This document shows, piece after piece, positions 9,828 to 14,486 of a DNA stretch of 14,486 nucleotides (position 1 is the stretch's first letter; every line of letters starts with the position of its first letter). Origin of the DNA: an uncultured Candidatus Saccharibacteria bacterium (GTDB lineage Bacteria; Patescibacteriota; Minisyncoccia; Phycocordibacterales; UBA918); the NCBI GenBank assembly GCA_964517185.1, contig CAZFBT010000013.1, positions 1 through 14,486 on the forward strand, written 5' to 3'. Below the pieces are notes generated by a model that worked only from the letters and a program-made list of their open reading frames with translations, was not told the origin of the DNA and did no database searches. The position numbers were made by a program, and so were the translations under genes.

Positions 9828-10451
9828 ATGCATACGATTTCAGCGGGGATAGCTGTCTCCCCGGTCAACATGGAAGACCGCAAGAACCTTGGCCTCAGGG
9901 CAGGGGATACAGTGCGTGTTCACCAGAAGATCAAGGACGAGAAGAATAAGTACCGCATCCAAGTCTTCGAGGGTACCGTCTTAGCGAGGAAGCACGGCGC
10001 AGAGGCCGGGGCAACATTCACCGTCCGCAAAGTCGTCGACGGCATCGGTGTTGAGAAGATATTCCCGCTCTATTCTCCGCTCATCGACAAGATAGAGATC
10101 ATTCGTCGAAGTGATGTGCGTCGGGCAAAGCTCTACTACATCCGCGAGAAGGTAGCGCGCGAGATCAAGCGGCAGATGCGTCGTATGCGACTCATGGACA
10201 TAGCATCTGAATCGGAGACCGAAGCGCAGGCGCGTGCCGCCGAAGAGGCAGCACGAGTGGCAGCCGAAGCCAAGGCCGCCGAAGAAGCCAAGGCTGCAGA
10301 GGAAGCGCGCCTCAAGGCAGAGGCAGAAGCGAAGGCTGCGGAAGAGGCGAAGGCAGCAGAAGCATCAGCCCCAGCCCCCGAGCCAGCAGCAGAGGAAGTC
10401 GCTTCGGAGGCACCAGTACCGGAAGCAGCTCCGGAAGAAGAGAAGAAATAA
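9828..10451 (+). CDS. rplS: 50S ribosomal protein L19 with a ~86-aa Ala/Glu/Lys/Pro-rich C-terminal extension
   Basis: The core GDTVRVH.KI.....[15 protein letters not shown]...TFTVRK...[24 protein letters not shown] matches L19. The start at ATG 9828 gives the usual ~25 aa before GDTV; an alternative ATG is at 9870. The tail from ~10191 reads [10 protein letters not shown]...APEEEKK. Confidence 0.9.
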
Positions 10452-10673: not shown

Positions 10674-10698
10674 AAACCGAGACCTGCGTCTCGGTTTT
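10674..10698 (+). terminator. hairpin plus T-run after tRNA-Leu (A/T-flanked, potentially bidirectional); also the first hairpin of structured unit 1
   Basis: AAACCGAGAC-CTGC-GTCTCGGTTT followed by T. It starts 14 nt after the tRNA-Leu 3' end. Confidence 0.6.
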
Positions 10699-10702
10699 AG
10701 CG

Positions 10703-10759
10703 TTTGTGAGCCGGAGCCATGTTTTCGCTATACCTAATGCGAAAACGGGCGAGGCCGGG
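10703..10759. repeat. stem-loop module copy 1 (conserved flanks, covarying 8-bp stem, CCTAAT loop)
   Basis: TTTGTGAGCCGGAGC-c-AT-[GTTTTCGC]-tataCCTAAT-[GCGAAAAC]-gg-GCGAGGCCGGG. The paralogous copy is at 10950-11005. Confidence 0.85.
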
Positions 10760-10949
10760 TGAGACAGTCTGGGGGACTGTCGCAAGACTCATTGTGGATC
10801 TTTGCAAGTGAAGCGAAGCAAAGAGCCCAATGAGTGGACAGTGTCTGTAAGACGGGAAGTGCTTAGCGGTTTGGAGCAAAGCGAACAAACCACTTAGCAA
10901 CTTGACCCCAACCGCAAAAACGACCTGAACTGCTTCAGGCCGTTTCGCT

Positions 10950-11005
10950 TTTGTGAGCCGGAGCGATGTCGCAGCTGCTCCTAATGCTGCGACCGCGAGG
11001 CCGGG
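10950..11005. repeat. stem-loop module copy 2
   Basis: TTTGTGAGCCGGAGC-g-AT-[GTCGCAGC]-tgctCCTAAT-[GCTGCGAC]-c-GCGAGGCCGGG. The flanks are identical to copy 1. Four of the 8 stem pairs differ and all four are compensated. Confidence 0.85.
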
Positions 11006-11067: not shown

Positions 11068-11664
11068 CTACACCTCCTCCAAATATGCATTGAGGAAGGC
11101 GAGTTCGCGTTCGGTGATGAAGTGGCCCTGATAGATATTCGGCTTGTCTTTCTCGATGAGCTCAATGGCTTCGGTGGGATTCACCCAGACCGTCTGAAGT
11201 CCTTCAGCAATCTCGCTTTCGTCAAGCGCGGTCGGTCCTATCTCGCCCATGACCTCCGCGATGTACCCATACGATATCTGAATGAGGTCGTGGGCGTCGC
11301 GGTACTCGATGACGATGCCAAGGGGCTTCACAATGCGAATATCGCATCCGACCTCTTCACGCACCTCGCGGTGGAGCGCTTGTTCGAGCGTTTCGTCCTG
11401 TTCCATGCCGCCGCCGGGGAGCTTGTGGAAGAAGTGATTCGAAAGATACTGGAGCGCAATCGTGCCGTCGTCGCGGACAAGGACCGCTCGAGCGCTCTTT
11501 CTAAGTTTGTATGGTCGGTCCATCTTCTCGCTGAACCCCATGTTAAGAGAGCCGTCGCTAATTTCAGCGAGGAGTTTGAGCGCAGTCATATATTCCAGTA
11601 TATCAGAGCACGGTTCGGCTACTGTGTCTCGACAATAGCCTCCAAAACCGTTATAACTATGCAC
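11068..11664 (-). CDS. Nudix hydrolase
   Basis: A complete Nudix box is present: GGGMEQDETLEQALHREVREEVG (G-x5-E-x7-REVxEExG). The track start at 11664 is a GTG. In-frame ATGs at 11589, 11541 and 11523 would give 173-, 157- and 151-aa proteins, so the start is uncertain. Confidence 0.85.
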   Translation of the reverse strand: MHSYNGFGGYCRDTVAEPCSDILEYMTALKLLAEISDGSLNMGFSEKMDRPYKLRKSARAVLVRDDGTIALQYLSNHFFHKLPGGGMEQDETLEQALHREVREEVGCDIRIVKPLGIVIEYRDAHDLIQISYGYIAEVMGEIGPTALDESEIAEGLQTVWVNPTEAIELIEKDKPNIYQGHFITERELAFLNAYLEEV

Positions 11665-11787
11665 TGAACGTGTGGAAATAGCGCACTTCTGCGTTGTGCT
11701 TCACAAAATACCGATCATCGTATACTCGATACGCCTCACGGTATTTTGTTCGCACGCCTTGAATTGCATCAATTTCCACACGTTCAG
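11664..11787. repeat. 124-nt nested imperfect palindrome between the Nudix gene and tRNA-His
   Basis: Outer arms are a perfect 16-mer: CTGAACGTGTGGAAAT (11664-11679) / ATTTCCACACGTTCAG (11772-11787). Inner arms are a perfect 10-mer: CAAAATACCG (11704-11713) / CGGTATTTTG (11739-11748). The apex is CGTAT-ACTCG-ATACG (11719-11733). Confidence 0.9.
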
Positions 11788-11798
11788 AGAATGATAAT

Positions 11799-11871
11799 GG
11801 CGGCTATGGTGTAATGGTCAACACTGAGGTTTGTGGAGCCTTCGATCTGGGTTCGATTCCCAGTAGCCGCC
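11799..11871 (+). tRNA. tRNA-His (anticodon GTG) with encoded G-1
   Basis: G-1 at 11799 pairs with discriminator C73 (11871). Acceptor GCGGCTA/TAGCCGC. D arm GTGT-AATGGTCA-ACAC. Anticodon loop TTGTGGA (GTG at 11833-11835). T arm CTGGG-TTCGATT-CCCAG. CCA is not encoded. Confidence 0.93.
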
Positions 11872-11926
11872 CTAATGAATATTTAGCTAGAATGTCCCTG
11901 TATTGCAGGGATTTTCTAGTTCTAGC
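11868..11926 (+). repeat. boundary module L, copy 1 (tRNA-His trailer with extended terminator-like hairpin)
   Basis: CGCCCTAATGAATATTTAGCTAGAATGTCCCTGTATTGCAGGGATTTTCTAGTTCTAGC. It is 59/59 identical to 13011-13069. It contains the hairpin CTAGAA-tg-TCCCTG-tattg-CAGGGA-tt-TTCTAG (11887-11919), whose 3' arm lies in the T-rich run TTTTCT. Confidence 0.9.
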
Positions 11927-11942
11927 ATGCTATGCTTTTCGT

Positions 11943-12950
11943 ATGGACGAAAGTCAAACACCAGAAATAAGTTCAACTTCTCAAAAAACCAGTTTGAAAG
12001 AACAATTCACGACAGTCACACCTCTTTCAAAATTTCTCGCGATGGTCCTTTTTGTAGCGTTCCCATTTGTTGGTTTTTGGTTTGGTATGAAATATCAAAC
12101 TCAAGATACACTTGAGCTTATGCAAAGACAAACAAACATTGGAACAACAAATGATGCAAGTGGTGTCTTACCAACAGATACCAGTGTGAGTGGTCAGCTG
12201 ACGGGGAACATTCAGTCAAATCAGGAAATTGAGAAAGTAACTCAAGAAGAGAATGAACTATTGTTGAATCGTATACGCTCTGAATATTCTGACATTTTTT
12301 CTACGCCCACTGATTATTCATTTGAGTGGAGATGGTATGACACAAACACCGGACCGAACATATCCAACATTCAGGGTAAGGTAATATCAACATCAGAATT
12401 CTCTTTTCAGGATTTGTTCTTGGGAGACCAGAGCCTCTTTTACCAGATTGAAAACACTCTTCCATCTTTCTTTGAACAAGAAGGATTCACGCAGGCGACC
12501 GCAAATGACAGTGACCATCCTACAAACGGTAGTTCAGTTCAGGGTTATGAACGGATAAATGATGGGGTGGTGTGTCTCAGAATCATTGAAGATACCGAGT
12601 CAGAATTTATGAACTATAAAATTGCGTGTGGGTTTAATCCAGCAACTATGAGTCCGAAAAGAATCAGCTATGACACAGGGCAATATTTGGATTGGGTAGG
12701 GAACGTCGTGGAATACATTCAGGACTGCGGCGGGGGTGAGAAATGTTTCAGTAGTCTACGAATTTCTCTTCCTGAAAATATGCAAACAAGCGAAATTTTT
12801 GAAGCAAGAATTAATATTGAGCAGTGTGTAGATGAAACACTACGAACCGGTGATAACGTTCACACGAAGGGTCATATACAAACAATAGTCTCCGATATTG
12901 GTCTTATATTTTCTTGCGATGACTCAGGCACATCAGTGACTAGAAAGTAG
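11943..12950 (+). CDS. hypothetical membrane-anchored protein (cassette A), no recognised family
   Basis: 335 aa from ATG 11943 (MDESQTPE...). The track ORF start at 11814 lies inside tRNA-His, and the ATG at 11892 lies inside module L, where it reads into a stop after 12 codons in the second L copy. One N-terminal TM helix (FLAMVLFVAFPFVGFWFG) is followed by a Ser/Thr/Gln/Asn-rich linker and a ~220-aa domain with 6 Cys. Confidence 0.7.
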   Translation: MDESQTPEISSTSQKTSLKEQFTTVTPLSKFLAMVLFVAFPFVGFWFGMKYQTQDTLELMQRQTNIGTTNDASGVLPTDTSVSGQLTGNIQSNQEIEKVTQEENELLLNRIRSEYSDIFSTPTDYSFEWRWYDTNTGPNISNIQGKVISTSEFSFQDLFLGDQSLFYQIENTLPSFFEQEGFTQATANDSDHPTNGSSVQGYERINDGVVCLRIIEDTESEFMNYKIACGFNPATMSPKRISYDTGQYLDWVGNVVEYIQDCGGGEKCFSSLRISLPENMQTSEIFEARINIEQCVDETLRTGDNVHTKGHIQTIVSDIGLIFSCDDSGTSVTRK

Positions 12951-13015
12951 GAATGTAGATACTCACATCACTCAACCGCTCAAAAACAGTTCTAACATCC
13001 TCTACGACGTCGCCC
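12947..13015 (+). repeat. boundary module R, copy A
   Basis: 69 nt, GTAGGAATGTAGATACTCACATCACTCAACCGCTCAAAAACAGTTCTAACATCCTCTACGACGTCGCCC. It matches 13869-13937 at 60/69 positions, and the last 30 nt are identical. It ends in CGCCC, which is also the start of module L and matches the tRNA-His 3' terminal sequence (11868-11872). Confidence 0.88.
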
Positions 13016-13069
13016 TAATGAATATTTAGCTAGAATGTCCCTGTATTGCAGGGATTTTCTAGTTCTAGC
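13011..13069 (+). repeat. boundary module L, copy 2 (between cassettes A and B)
   Basis: Identical to 11868-11926. The hairpin at 13030-13062 is positioned to terminate cassette A transcription. Confidence 0.9.
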
Positions 13070-13090
13070 CTGATATACTTTTCAAACAAA

Positions 13091-13828
13091 ATGAGTAAAA
13101 AGATTGCAATTGTATGCTCGGGGGGAGGAATGAGGTGTGGCTACACTGGCGGTGTATTGGTGGCTCTTGCCCGAGAACTAAATCTTACGTCCCCAGACAT
13201 AATTATTGCTGGTTCAGGTAGTGCTGGTTTCTCACTTTATTATTTAACACAACAATACGAAGCCATAAAAAAGATTGCCATTGAACTTCTTGCTACGCCA
13301 AAATTTATTTCATTTCTACGTCTGAACAAAATTATGGACATAGATTATCTTATTGACGTCGTGTTCAAACAACAACAGCCTTTGGATTTGGAAAAACTAT
13401 CACAAACAAAATCCACATACTACATTCCAATCAAGAATTTAGAGAGTGGTGAAATACGCTACTTCTCAAACAAAGATGACGTAGATATTTTTGAAGTTCT
13501 GCGAGCGACAAAGGCAATCCCGTATTTCTACAAGAGAAAAATCTTACTAGACGGTTCTAGCTATGTAGACGGGTCAACATTCTCCCAACTAAAAAAGATG
13601 ATTGATAAGGCAATAGAGTTTGGTGCAGACAAAGTCCTTGTCATAGATTGTAGAACACTAATGAGTAAGCTCCCTGAGTATGAAGACGGTCAGGTGTTTG
13701 TAATTTCAAACCCTAAAATCCCATCAAAATTACTCACAAGGAATGCCAAGAAGTTGCAAAAGACCTATGAAATAGGTTACTCAGATGTTGTAACCAACAA
13801 AGCGTTAGAAGTTTGGCTAAAAAACTAA
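13091..13828 (+). CDS. patatin-like phospholipase family protein (cassette B)
   Basis: 245 aa from ATG 13091 (MSKKIAIVCSGGGMRCGYTGG). It has the oxyanion motif GGGMRCG (G-G-G-x-R/K-G-like), the nucleophile-elbow region DIIIAGSGSAGF (G-x-S-x-G-like), and a later DGS (LLDGSSYVDGS) at the place of the catalytic Asp D-G-[AG] motif. No signal peptide or TM helix is present. The track start at 13046 is a TTG inside repeat L. Confidence 0.72.
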   Translation: MSKKIAIVCSGGGMRCGYTGGVLVALARELNLTSPDIIIAGSGSAGFSLYYLTQQYEAIKKIAIELLATPKFISFLRLNKIMDIDYLIDVVFKQQQPLDLEKLSQTKSTYYIPIKNLESGEIRYFSNKDDVDIFEVLRATKAIPYFYKRKILLDGSSYVDGSTFSQLKKMIDKAIEFGADKVLVIDCRTLMSKLPEYEDGQVFVISNPKIPSKLLTRNAKKLQKTYEIGYSDVVTNKALEVWLKN

Positions 13829-13868
13829 TAAGGGCTAAGAAATAGTGCCTGCAGATGTAGGGTAGAAC

Positions 13869-13937
13869 GTAGGAATATAGATATTCGTATCACCCATTCT
13901 CTCAAACACAGTTCTAACATCCTCTACGACGTCGCCC
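13869..13937 (+). repeat. boundary module R, copy B
   Basis: GTAGGAATATAGATATTCGTATCACCCATTCTCTCAAACACAGTTCTAACATCCTCTACGACGTCGCCC. It lies 40 nt after the patatin stop. It is followed by unique sequence (AAATCGG...) rather than directly by an L module. Confidence 0.88.
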
Positions 13938-13945
13938 AAATCGGC

Positions 13946-13973
13946 CCGCCCGAGAACGATAGTTCTCGGGCGG
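13946..13973 (+). terminator. strong GC-rich hairpin, possible terminator of cassette B
   Basis: Perfect 12-bp stem CCGCCCGAGAAC / GTTCTCGGGCGG with loop GATA, followed by TTGCCGTTT, an interrupted T-run. Confidence 0.5.
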
Positions 13974-13985
13974 TTGCCGTTTGGA

Positions 13986-14004
13986 GCGGCTACTGGGAAT
14001 CGAA
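13986..14004 (-). repeat. inverted partial copy of the tRNA-His 3' end
   Basis: GCGGCTACTGGGAATCGAA is the exact reverse complement of tRNA-His nt 11852-11870 (TTCGATTCCCAGTAGCCGC). Including flanks, the match is 22/24. It forms an inverted pair with the direct partial copy at 14124-14144. Confidence 0.85.
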
Positions 14005-14123
14005 AGACGGAGGCCGATATGAATTTCTGAGTGAAGCGATGAAAGAAACCGGCCGAGTCAGGGTCGTGAGCGACATATTTTCAAGGAGTCGTAAGCAACT
14101 ATGAAAATAGTCGACTCCTGACA

Positions 14124-14194
14124 GATTCCCAGTAGCCGCCCTAACGAATATTTAGCTAGAATGTCCCTATATGTGGGGATTTTTTAGTTCCAAC
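14124..14194 (+). repeat. partial tRNA-His 3' end plus diverged L module (L'), probable original tRNA trailer / attR-like end
   Basis: The first 21 nt are identical to 11855-11875. The remaining L-like sequence has 7 substitutions and one 1-nt loop deletion. The hairpin is preserved: the G-C pair of L becomes A-T, one pair becomes G-U, and the outer CTAGAA stem is kept with one G-U. Confidence 0.85.
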
Positions 14195-14201
14195 CAAACG
14201 A

Positions 14202-14230
14202 TTGACACACAAGTATAATAATGGTATACT
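14202..14230 (+). promoter_or_regulatory. near-consensus sigma70-type promoter
   Basis: TTGACA (14202-14207), a 17-nt spacer, then TATACT (14225-14230). It is followed by a 7-bp 5'-UTR hairpin ACTCGTC/GACGAGT (14237-14256) and the Shine-Dalgarno sequence AAGGAG (14264-14269). Confidence 0.7.
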
Positions 14231-14276
14231 TTTTTTACTCGTCATTCCCGACGAGTTTCAACCAAGGAGCCAAACA

Positions 14277-14486
14277 ATGGCAATGAGCAAGGAGCGAATG
14301 GGCGAAATCGCCCTGTTGTACGTCAAGAAGAAGTTGCGTCGTGAAGGGCTGAACCTCAAGCCCAACATGCAACGCGAAGCGGGGAACGAAGCGAAGGCAC
14401 TCGGGATTTCCCCCGAGGAGGCGTCGGAGTTTATGGAAATCCTCGCTACCGAGCTGTTCGCCGAAGCCTTCCCCAAGAAGAGCTAG
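14277..14486 (+). CDS. small hypothetical protein (69 aa), helical and charged
   Basis: ATG 14277 lies 7 nt after AAGGAG, and the stop TAG at 14484-14486 is at the window end. The sequence reads MAMSKERMGEIALLYVKKKLRREGLNLKPNMQREAGNEAKALGISPEEASEFMEILATELFAEAFPKKS. GC is host-like. The track start at 14202 would overlap the promoter. Confidence 0.65.
   Translation: MAMSKERMGEIALLYVKKKLRREGLNLKPNMQREAGNEAKALGISPEEASEFMEILATELFAEAFPKKS

Follow-up and report, generated by a model that had tools for sequence, protein, structure and literature searches.

Single-gene cassettes arrayed at a tRNA-His gene in Patescibacteria are bounded by the coding tail of a large serine recombinase

Tandem islands of the staphylococcal cassette chromosome (SCC) and pseudo-SCC type are found at rlmH in staphylococci, where Ccr serine recombinases excise neighbouring cassettes that carry no recombinase gene (PMC11470126). 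Here we describe a 14,486-nt stretch of DNA from an uncultured Candidatus Saccharibacteria bacterium (contig CAZFBT010000013.1 of GenBank assembly GCA_964517185.1; hereafter the window), in which two single-gene cassettes follow a tRNA-His gene and are bounded by copies of a 72-nt element, R, that corresponds to the last ∼24 codons, on the minus strand, of a large serine recombinase (LSR) gene. The SCC and pseudo-SCC islands at rlmH appear to be the closest analogue of this locus: in both, the 3′ end of a conserved housekeeping gene carries tandem units, a short core repeat mimics the end of the target, many units lack a recombinase gene and the enzyme is, or here would be, a large serine recombinase. 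Since the target is tRNA-His and not rlmH, we regard the locus as an analogue of SCC rather than a member. It also differs from SCC in its mostly ∼1-kb single-gene units (compared with 20–60 kb), in a far-end repeat that is a relic of the recombinase tail and in its spread over several Patescibacteria classes.

Parts of the same logic are found in other systems. As with the LSRs of phiC31, Bxb1 and A118, the enzymes considered here combine Resolvase, Recombinase and zinc ribbon domains, and their attB and attP sites share only a short core and give hybrid attL and attR sites; unlike in those phage-type systems, attP would lie within the 3′ coding end of the recombinase gene, whose tail integration would exchange, the outermost 3′ end of a tRNA gene serves as target, and recombinase-less derivatives pile up in arrays. 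Archaeal integrases of the SSV type, in work attributed to She et al. from 2001–2002, are said to carry attP inside int, so that integration at a tRNA splits the gene. The likeness lies in an attachment site within the recombinase gene, a tRNA target and gene fragments left as footprints of capture; however, the SSV-type enzymes are tyrosine recombinases whose int gene is broken into two large pieces and loses its function, whereas here the enzyme is of the serine type and only the last 25–35 codons would be displaced. In the accretion and mobilisation of cis-mobilisable elements (CIMEs) by integrative and conjugative elements (ICEs), as for Streptococcus thermophilus ICESt1/3, an autonomous element stacks non-autonomous att-flanked units, which are co-excised via alternative att pairs. 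Stacked non-autonomous att-flanked units and, as we propose, alternative att pairs also characterise the present arrays, but CIME/ICE systems use a tyrosine integrase and large elements, whereas the repeat here is a recombinase-gene relic. Patescibacteria have tiny genomes and depend on hosts, and their gain of accessory genes is poorly known; our literature search found no description of this arrangement in Patescibacteria.

The window reads tRNA-His·L–gene A–R·L–gene B–R·X–(partial tRNA-His)·L′, and every piece of the architecture proposed in a first-pass annotation (tRNA-His, L, an R/L fusion, a second R, a partial tRNA-His and L′) was located:

11800–11872, plus strand: tRNA-His(gtg), identified by ARAGORN and Rfam; the left arm (B) of the putative recombinase target runs from the T-loop GTTCGA to ...GCCGCCC.
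11873–11926, plus strand: L copy 1, the right flank at the tRNA-His junction, from the Y1 family of flank modules; terminator-like hairpin at 11894–11912.
11928–11936, plus strand: extended −10-like motif TGCTATGCT, 6 nt ahead of the gene A ATG.
11943–12950, plus strand: gene A, 335 aa, with an N-terminal membrane helix and no Pfam family.
12945–13015, plus strand: R copy 1 (nhmmer E = 1e-19), the P arm, ending at the crossover core CGCCC; minus-strand reading GDVVEDVRTVFERLSDVSIYIPTF and a stop.
13016–13069, plus strand: L copy 2, same as copy 1, with its hairpin at 13037–13055; R1·L is an attR-type junction.
13071–13079, plus strand: extended −10-like motif TGATATACT, 11 nt ahead of the gene B ATG.
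13091–13828, plus strand: gene B, 245 aa, a patatin-like phospholipase (lipase; Pfam PF01734, E = 5.6e-10).
13866–13937, plus strand: R copy 2 (nhmmer E = 2e-21); minus-strand reading LGDVVEDVRTVFERMGDTNIYIPTFYPTSAGTIS and a stop.
13938–14141, minus strand: X module, comprising a GC hairpin, the complement of the tRNA-His 3′ end, a body of ∼120 nt and a direct partial tRNA-His 3′ end (14124–14141) that ends in the core.
14142–14194, plus strand: L′, probably the native tRNA-His flank (B′ side); terminator-like hairpin at 14163–14180.
14202–14486, plus strand: flanking host DNA, with a promoter-like site TTGACA-17-TATACT (14202–14230) and a 69-aa gene (14277–14486).

Counted with the core, the two L copies (11868–11926 and 13011–13069) are identical at 59 of 59 positions and identity falls right after, a perfect repeat that is not due to chance. 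L′, taken from 14137, shows 66% identity to L over 73 nt and ∼93% over the first 45 nt. The R copies are 86% identical over 79 nt, with their final ∼30 nt identical, and both end (at 13015 and 13937) with the same CGCCC as tRNA-His, whose 3′ end recurs directly as a 21-nt copy at 14124–14144. The drop in GC content that had been remarked on inside the array was measured as 0.35–0.42 within the region versus 0.51–0.63 upstream. Neither the open reading frames (ORFs) of the window nor their Pfam matches include an integrase-like ORF, in line with the first-pass annotation, and the recombinase is not encoded in the array; an enzyme with Resolvase, Recombinase and Zn-ribbon domains is absent from the window and present in loci L038 and L096–L098, in protein P0210 and in relatives. 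The units of the window are therefore non-autonomous at best.

The identity of R follows from how its copies vary. Watson–Crick covariation was not found among 81 distinct copies; the variable columns fall on the wobble positions of one minus-strand frame (mean entropy 1.20 versus 0.66 and 0.82; permutation p = 0.006; 81 copies). Single-base codon changes in that frame are synonymous in 299 cases and nonsynonymous in 198, compared with ∼70:490 in four other frames and 232:326 in the plus-strand frame that shares third positions. The peptide reads GDVVEDVRTVFE(R/K)..D..IYIP.F and is followed by a short variable tail and a stop. A protein search placed it at the in-frame end of ORFs of ∼100 aa, for example P0006 (...LVLELADCPLRG joined to AVVEEVRTVFEKRNDATVYIPSF) and also P0031. 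This ∼100-aa module is common (2,580 cluster representatives at E<0.001) and makes up the last ∼110 residues of ∼500-aa proteins in which Resolvase, Recombinase and Zn_ribbon_recom domains are combined, that is, LSRs. After ...LVLELA..P these proteins end in one of two ways: with a native R-like tail, as in P0413 (NWLRIVEDVRTIIQQQNEYIYIPDL) and similarly in P0383 (..IVEDVRTI..YIYIPDL), or with a tRNA 3′ end that has been reverse-translated, such as WLRGQDSNLRP or, for tRNA-His, GGYRESNP. Comparing the profile of the module with the L038 recombinase gave no significant match, and the link from module to LSR was made through these full-length proteins instead. We conclude that R is a relic of an LSR gene, which gives a family to boundaries that the first-pass annotation could not assign to any described one.

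Several other identities for R were considered and discarded. In the arrays it does not end an intact longer gene, as the longest open frame upstream has only 107 codons. As a structured RNA it lacks both covariation and an Rfam match, and tmRNA, permuted tmRNA and tRNA-like folds do not fit by inspection; Rfam 15 returned nothing for R or X even at E≤10, with only tRNAs above threshold. An IS200/IS605-type element of the palindrome-associated (PATE) kind would fit insertion 3′ of CGCCC, but R has no conserved hairpin or covariation and is recombinase-coding, and no TnpA was found among the proteins scanned. R could also travel for a function of its own, as a micro-protein gene of ∼25–35 aa or a conserved regulatory spacer. 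Its strong protein-level conservation and the possible start codon just before GDVV in ∼60% of copies would suit such a role, but about one-third of the copies have no start codon, some copies come directly after a stop, the tails and stops vary, conservation ceases exactly at the tRNA-type core, and recombinases of 500 aa end in frame with the same peptide. We consider this explanation improbable.

LSR relics that keep only the last ∼110 codons number in the thousands, and they seem to be broken at one point, just before ITKD(I/V)YDKK (examples are proteins P0006–P0339 and the relics at L089 9960–10327, L090 9960–10333 and L093 9950–10245). The DNA at this break (TAAGGATGTC) resembles the recombinase arm of R (TAGAGGATGT) and, inverted, the gene's own 3′ arm. 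These features hint at recombinase-made deletions or at a spreading miniature element.

R is widespread in the lineage. Its 81 distinct copies come from ∼45 Patescibacteria genome loci and 15 metagenome loci, the latter found with the last 25 nt of R (25-mer search). A search with a degenerate 22-mer returned 69 genome loci, of which ∼45 belong to Saccharibacteria, Paceibacteria, Kaiserbacteria, Nomurabacteria and other Patescibacteria metagenome-assembled genomes (MAGs); the matches from other phyla, most of which have no complete R, appear fortuitous. With the nhmmer profile, up to 5–6 copies were found per 8-kb locus, all on one strand, and at least 10 in one contig of 18.8 kb. In each of the 26 loci with a tRNA upstream of the first R, that tRNA was tRNA-His and lay on the same strand as R. 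Viral contigs gave no match to the R 25-mer or to the LSR C-terminal module, and a phage origin was accordingly rejected. The first-pass annotation had suggested looking for more R and L copies, and further cassettes and longer arrays were indeed found. It had also offered an alternative, namely that the boundary of an island was duplicated once within an old, dead insertion. The window by itself, with just two cassettes and identical L copies, could be read in this way; since R is widespread in arrays tied to tRNA-His, flanks unrelated genes and bounds some cassettes common to several species, a one-off duplication is excluded.

All four types of site expected of an LSR system were found and aligned, and the attB/attP/attL/attR scheme accounts for the junctions:

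attB: tRNA-His with a flank module behind it (tHis·Y), as in tHis·L of the window and in relatives.
attL: tRNA-His followed by an antisense LSR 3′ end (tHis·LSR), in L096 with the full-length protein P0386 and as relics in L093 and L094.
attP-type, unsplit: R running on into that LSR 3′ sequence (R·LSR), in L089 and L090 (nhmmer E = 8e-15 and 3e-17) and in the relatives L097 and L098.
attR: R followed by a flank module (R·Y), in the arrays.

In L096, P0386 abuts tRNA-His in antisense with tRNA-Leu adjoining as in the window, and the relics of L093 and L094 occupy the same position. The left arms have only G(C/T)CGCCC in common, or CACCCC in another lineage. The proposal that the R/L junction is a recombination product at CGCCC is thus supported for both R·L and tRNA·L, with recombination taking place where tRNA-His ends in ...G(C/T)CGCCC. 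The arms also differ in one dimension: the T-loop GTTCGA of tRNA-His lies 17–22 nt from the boundary (−22 to −17), whereas GTTCTA of R lies 22–27 nt from it (−27 to −22). In structures of the LI/A118 integrase, ascribed to Rutherford et al. in 2013, the outer motif is reportedly placed ∼5 bp further out in attP than in attB half-sites. The 5-bp outward shift from GTTCGA to GTTCTA fits this half-site geometry and is a further likeness to the phage-type LSRs. A small HTH_17 gene was observed just upstream of the LSR gene in three elements (L096 9172–9348, L097 4160–4336 and L098 1246–1437); its product is a candidate excision (directionality) factor.

Sequences that follow tRNA-His...CGCCC and those that follow R...CGCCC are interchangeable. 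They belong to the same few families, Y1 (L of the window) to Y6, X and plain terminators, and are often identical within a genome (the window, L010, L019, L026 and L074). Whichever left arm (tRNA-His, R or partial tRNA-His) meets whichever flank family, the joint always lies at one and the same base after CGCCC. The 74 intervals between successive junctions measure 0.48–4.4 kb, with a median near 1.2 kb, and the cassette genes lie on either strand. Some cassettes are common to several species, at different array positions and with 78–92% identity. In a Kaiserbacteria MAG (L079), an L-like module stands with the start of a gene-A-like gene. The junction of tRNA-His directly to cassette B, which had been named beforehand as a sign of cassette shuffling, was seen in a 946-nt contig from another sample (L003; JGI 3300043267), in which tRNA-His and L, with one single-nucleotide polymorphism (SNP) in L, lead straight to gene B with no cassette A.

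We favour, as the probable explanation, that the 3′ end of tRNA-His is the attB of an LSR family common in Patescibacteria, that R is the displaced tail of the LSR gene and that recombinase-less cassettes stack at this site. The attP crossover would lie inside the LSR gene itself, ∼25–35 codons before its stop. Integration would fuse the LSR gene to the tRNA in antisense, giving attL, while the last codons of the gene would stay at the far end of the inserted DNA as R; together with whatever stood after the tRNA, R would then form attR. Read in this manner, the window would consist of attB (tHis·L), cassette A, attR (R·L), cassette B, attR (R·X), an X cassette ending in a partial tRNA-His arm, and the native flank L′, and each cassette would lack a recombinase and combine a flank that once followed the tRNA, with its terminator and promoter, a single gene, and R.

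The route by which cassettes are picked up and dropped, and any present-day mobility, would run as follows. An LSR element would integrate at attB, and its later excision could pair attL with any equivalent attR to its right. Excision with a distal attR would take neighbouring cassettes along; after transfer, the element could excise with its own attR and leave them behind. Arrays would grow in this way and cassettes would pass between genomes, with LSRs from other elements acting in trans. The use of alternative attR sites predicts the order attB–cassette–attR–cassette–attR, interchangeable right flanks and an absence of recombinase relics, which matches what is seen: when R-array loci, 26 of them reaching the tRNA-His junction, were searched by tblastn with the C-terminal module of R-tailed LSRs, none contained a relic of that family. 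As this route would need only canonical LSR reactions, it appears to be the most economical reading.

The only recombinase gene found in an array is that of L038, which encodes a 519-aa LSR and has the same cores on both sides. The gene abuts R at its 3′ end, and 35 nt upstream of its start there is a short arm that resembles tRNA-His and carries the core (..AACAGCCGCCC up to the boundary). Among candidates beside arrays, Pfam gave only a weak IS256-like match and a distant recombinase fragment.

Certain observations weigh against the displaced-tail explanation. The LSR of L038 is from another clade and is inserted at an R junction, not at tRNA-His; the window, on this contig, has neither a recombinase nor an LSR relic. 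No unsplit full-length R-tailed LSR for tRNA-His was recovered, only relics (L089 and L090) and relatives aimed at other tRNAs (L097 and L098; judged by terminal overlap, L098 does not close into a circle), and neither a circular form nor an empty site came to light. Look-ups of gene A, under two alternative starts, and of the NUDIX gene gave no record, and with them no longer contig and no variant lacking cassette B. The right flanks differ widely, and only 10 of 114 show a recognisable half-site-like motif, an unexpected result for enzymes that usually read the two arms. Further right-end types (an X-type partial tRNA-His, a W-type arm and a hybrid) are not derived by the model. Since the search patterns fixed the last 22–25 nt of R, the invariance of that segment is partly built in. 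Lastly, L003 could be the outcome of homologous recombination between L copies, or of assembly across the 64-nt repeat; otherwise it represents a strain polymorphism.

This last point belongs to a serious rival, a mixed history in which R stems from an old serine-recombinase integration and the present arrays have been shuffled by homologous recombination, the sites being fossils. The homology arms for naturally transformed DNA would be tRNA-His, R (72 nt, ∼90% conserved) and the shared flanks. Such a history would be in keeping with L copies that are 100% identical over 59 nt and R copies of 86–100% identity, with a PilM-like protein encoded in the window (by reading of the ORF), with the lack of LSR genes in nearly all arrays and of a half-site common to the right flanks, and with L003, the exact product expected of L–L recombination. 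However, all combinations of left arm and right flank join at the exact base after CGCCC, which 5–7 nt of homology cannot achieve, and new R·Y junctions require a site-specific event. The coding pattern of R diversity also argues for repeated deposits from functional recombinase genes. On balance we regard a history of homologous shuffling as unlikely, and prefer stacking by an LSR at tRNA-His.

The first-pass annotation took the cassettes to be promoter-poor, a description that does not hold. An extended −10-like motif precedes both genes, and TGnTA(T/C)A(A/C)T was found 6–11 nt before the ATG in 23 of 114 related right flanks, compared with 1.4 in shuffled sequences. The cassettes thus look self-expressed from their own promoter-like motifs and, because the motif lies only 6–11 nt before the start codon, their mRNAs are probably leaderless. 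Each flank module of the window (L, L and L′) carries a terminator-like hairpin. The cargo of related cassettes includes, according to Pfam, a GNAT acetyltransferase, several SAM methyltransferases, two aminoglycoside-2″-adenylyltransferase-like proteins, APH-like kinases, a PemK toxin, DUF1697 and a phosphodiesterase; RelE/ParE-like pairs were noticed by eye. Judged by eye from N-terminal sequences, pyrF-, pyrE-, pyrD- and pyrC-like genes stand between tRNA-His (or R) and the next R in L011 (385–3984, oriented) and L038 (6446–7863). If this reading is true, nucleotide biosynthesis is carried on a cassette in organisms that usually lack such genes.

One-directional arrays of small, mostly single-gene units, many of them without a recombinase and with cargo such as GNAT and aminoglycoside-modifying enzymes and toxins, recall integrons and clusters of attC sites lacking integron-integrases (CALINs). 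An integron-like system would consist of promoterless cassettes with folded attC-like sites, a tRNA-linked attI and a tyrosine recombinase encoded elsewhere. Of the integron likeness drawn in the first-pass annotation, the absence of canonical GTTRRRY/RYYYAAC cores was borne out, while an integron-like mechanism was not. No RYYYAAC...GTTRRRY pair occurs on either strand of 11700–14486, no hairpin spans a junction and R+L do not form one hairpin; R shows no covariation and is recombinase-coding. The cassettes have promoter-like motifs and terminators of their own, and ten flanking proteins scanned (from the window and five longer loci, the latter giving six candidates) included no tyrosine recombinase. 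The site logic matches serine recombinases, with double-strand att-type junctions rather than folded single strands. We therefore do not class the locus as an integron and consider an integron-like origin very improbable.

The segment between the second R and L′ had been described as 186 nt of unique sequence. Instead, it contains a GC hairpin (13946–13973) and an inverted copy of the tRNA-His T-loop-to-3′-end segment (13981–14004), which pairs with the direct partial tRNA-His copy as an inverted repeat of 18–21 bp, and it belongs to a conserved family, X. Members of this family follow tRNA-His in 10 of 26 loci and R in 26 of 102 junctions. Since X closes with a partial tRNA-His 3′ end and core, after which a normal flank starts, it behaves as a non-coding cassette of ∼200 nt. 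RNAalifold gave a common structure of 39 pairs for 12 X copies, 22 of the pairs with compensatory changes, in which the 5′ and 3′ ends pair in a helix of ∼17 bp equal to the tRNA-His acceptor and T stem. X may be a structured RNA on the minus strand; G-U and A-C counts favour neither strand. X was also observed in L005, L012, L052, L054, L074 and others; some loci hold more than one copy (L054 has three), and in many copies an additional hairpin interrupts the 3′ strand. Two further kinds of right end were noted, a W arm ending in ..TTCCAATTGGTTCCACCCGAGGGTCGGTAGTCGCCC at the boundary and a hybrid arm with the 5′ half of R and a tRNA-His-like end:

W and hybrid right ends: L040 1533; L048 2765, 4305 and 6509; L064 5917 and 7317; L024 6427.

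The extra right-end types imply that the arrays hold more units than the R counts show.

Other repeats and genes were observed upstream of the array. A family of 45-nt direct repeats (10696–10740, 10943–10987 and 11499–11543, the later copies with 78% and 60% identity to the first) sits in and near the two minus-strand genes between tRNA-Leu and tRNA-His. An imperfect 38-nt inverted repeat (76%; 11642–11679 and 11772–11809) brackets the region just upstream of tRNA-His and enters the first bases of the tRNA. The ORF at 9828–10451 was read from its sequence as ribosomal protein L19, with an 18-nt tandem-like repeat (10266–10361) encoding an Ala/Glu/Lys-rich C-terminal extension. In L093 (12319–13738), a relative with the same synteny, a reverse transcriptase (RVT_1) and bAvd lie beside the L19 gene, near the tRNA-Leu/tRNA-His site; the two together are hallmarks of a diversity-generating retroelement.

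A broader possibility, which we put forward tentatively and hold to be less probable than the displaced-tail explanation itself, is a phylum-wide, integron-like capture platform of Patescibacteria. It would be run by LSRs, with tRNA-His as the entry point, single-gene cassettes equipped with a terminator, a leaderless promoter and the 72-nt tail arm, exchange through alternative attR sites, and an X RNA that mimics the tRNA-His acceptor and T stem and takes part in or regulates the process. For annotation, R and the G(C/T)CGCCC core after tRNA-His can serve as markers that delimit mobile cassettes in metagenome-assembled genomes, and for biotechnology the sites offer attB/attP pairs of natural origin for serine integrases from a large clade that is still unexplored. 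If the explanation is true, an array at one tRNA gene, serviced by a recombinase, would be a main route of gene gain in Patescibacteria, for cargo that comprises drug-modifying enzymes, methyltransferases, toxins, lipases and possibly a pyrimidine-synthesis block, and it would represent a serine-recombinase counterpart to integrons and SCC islands.

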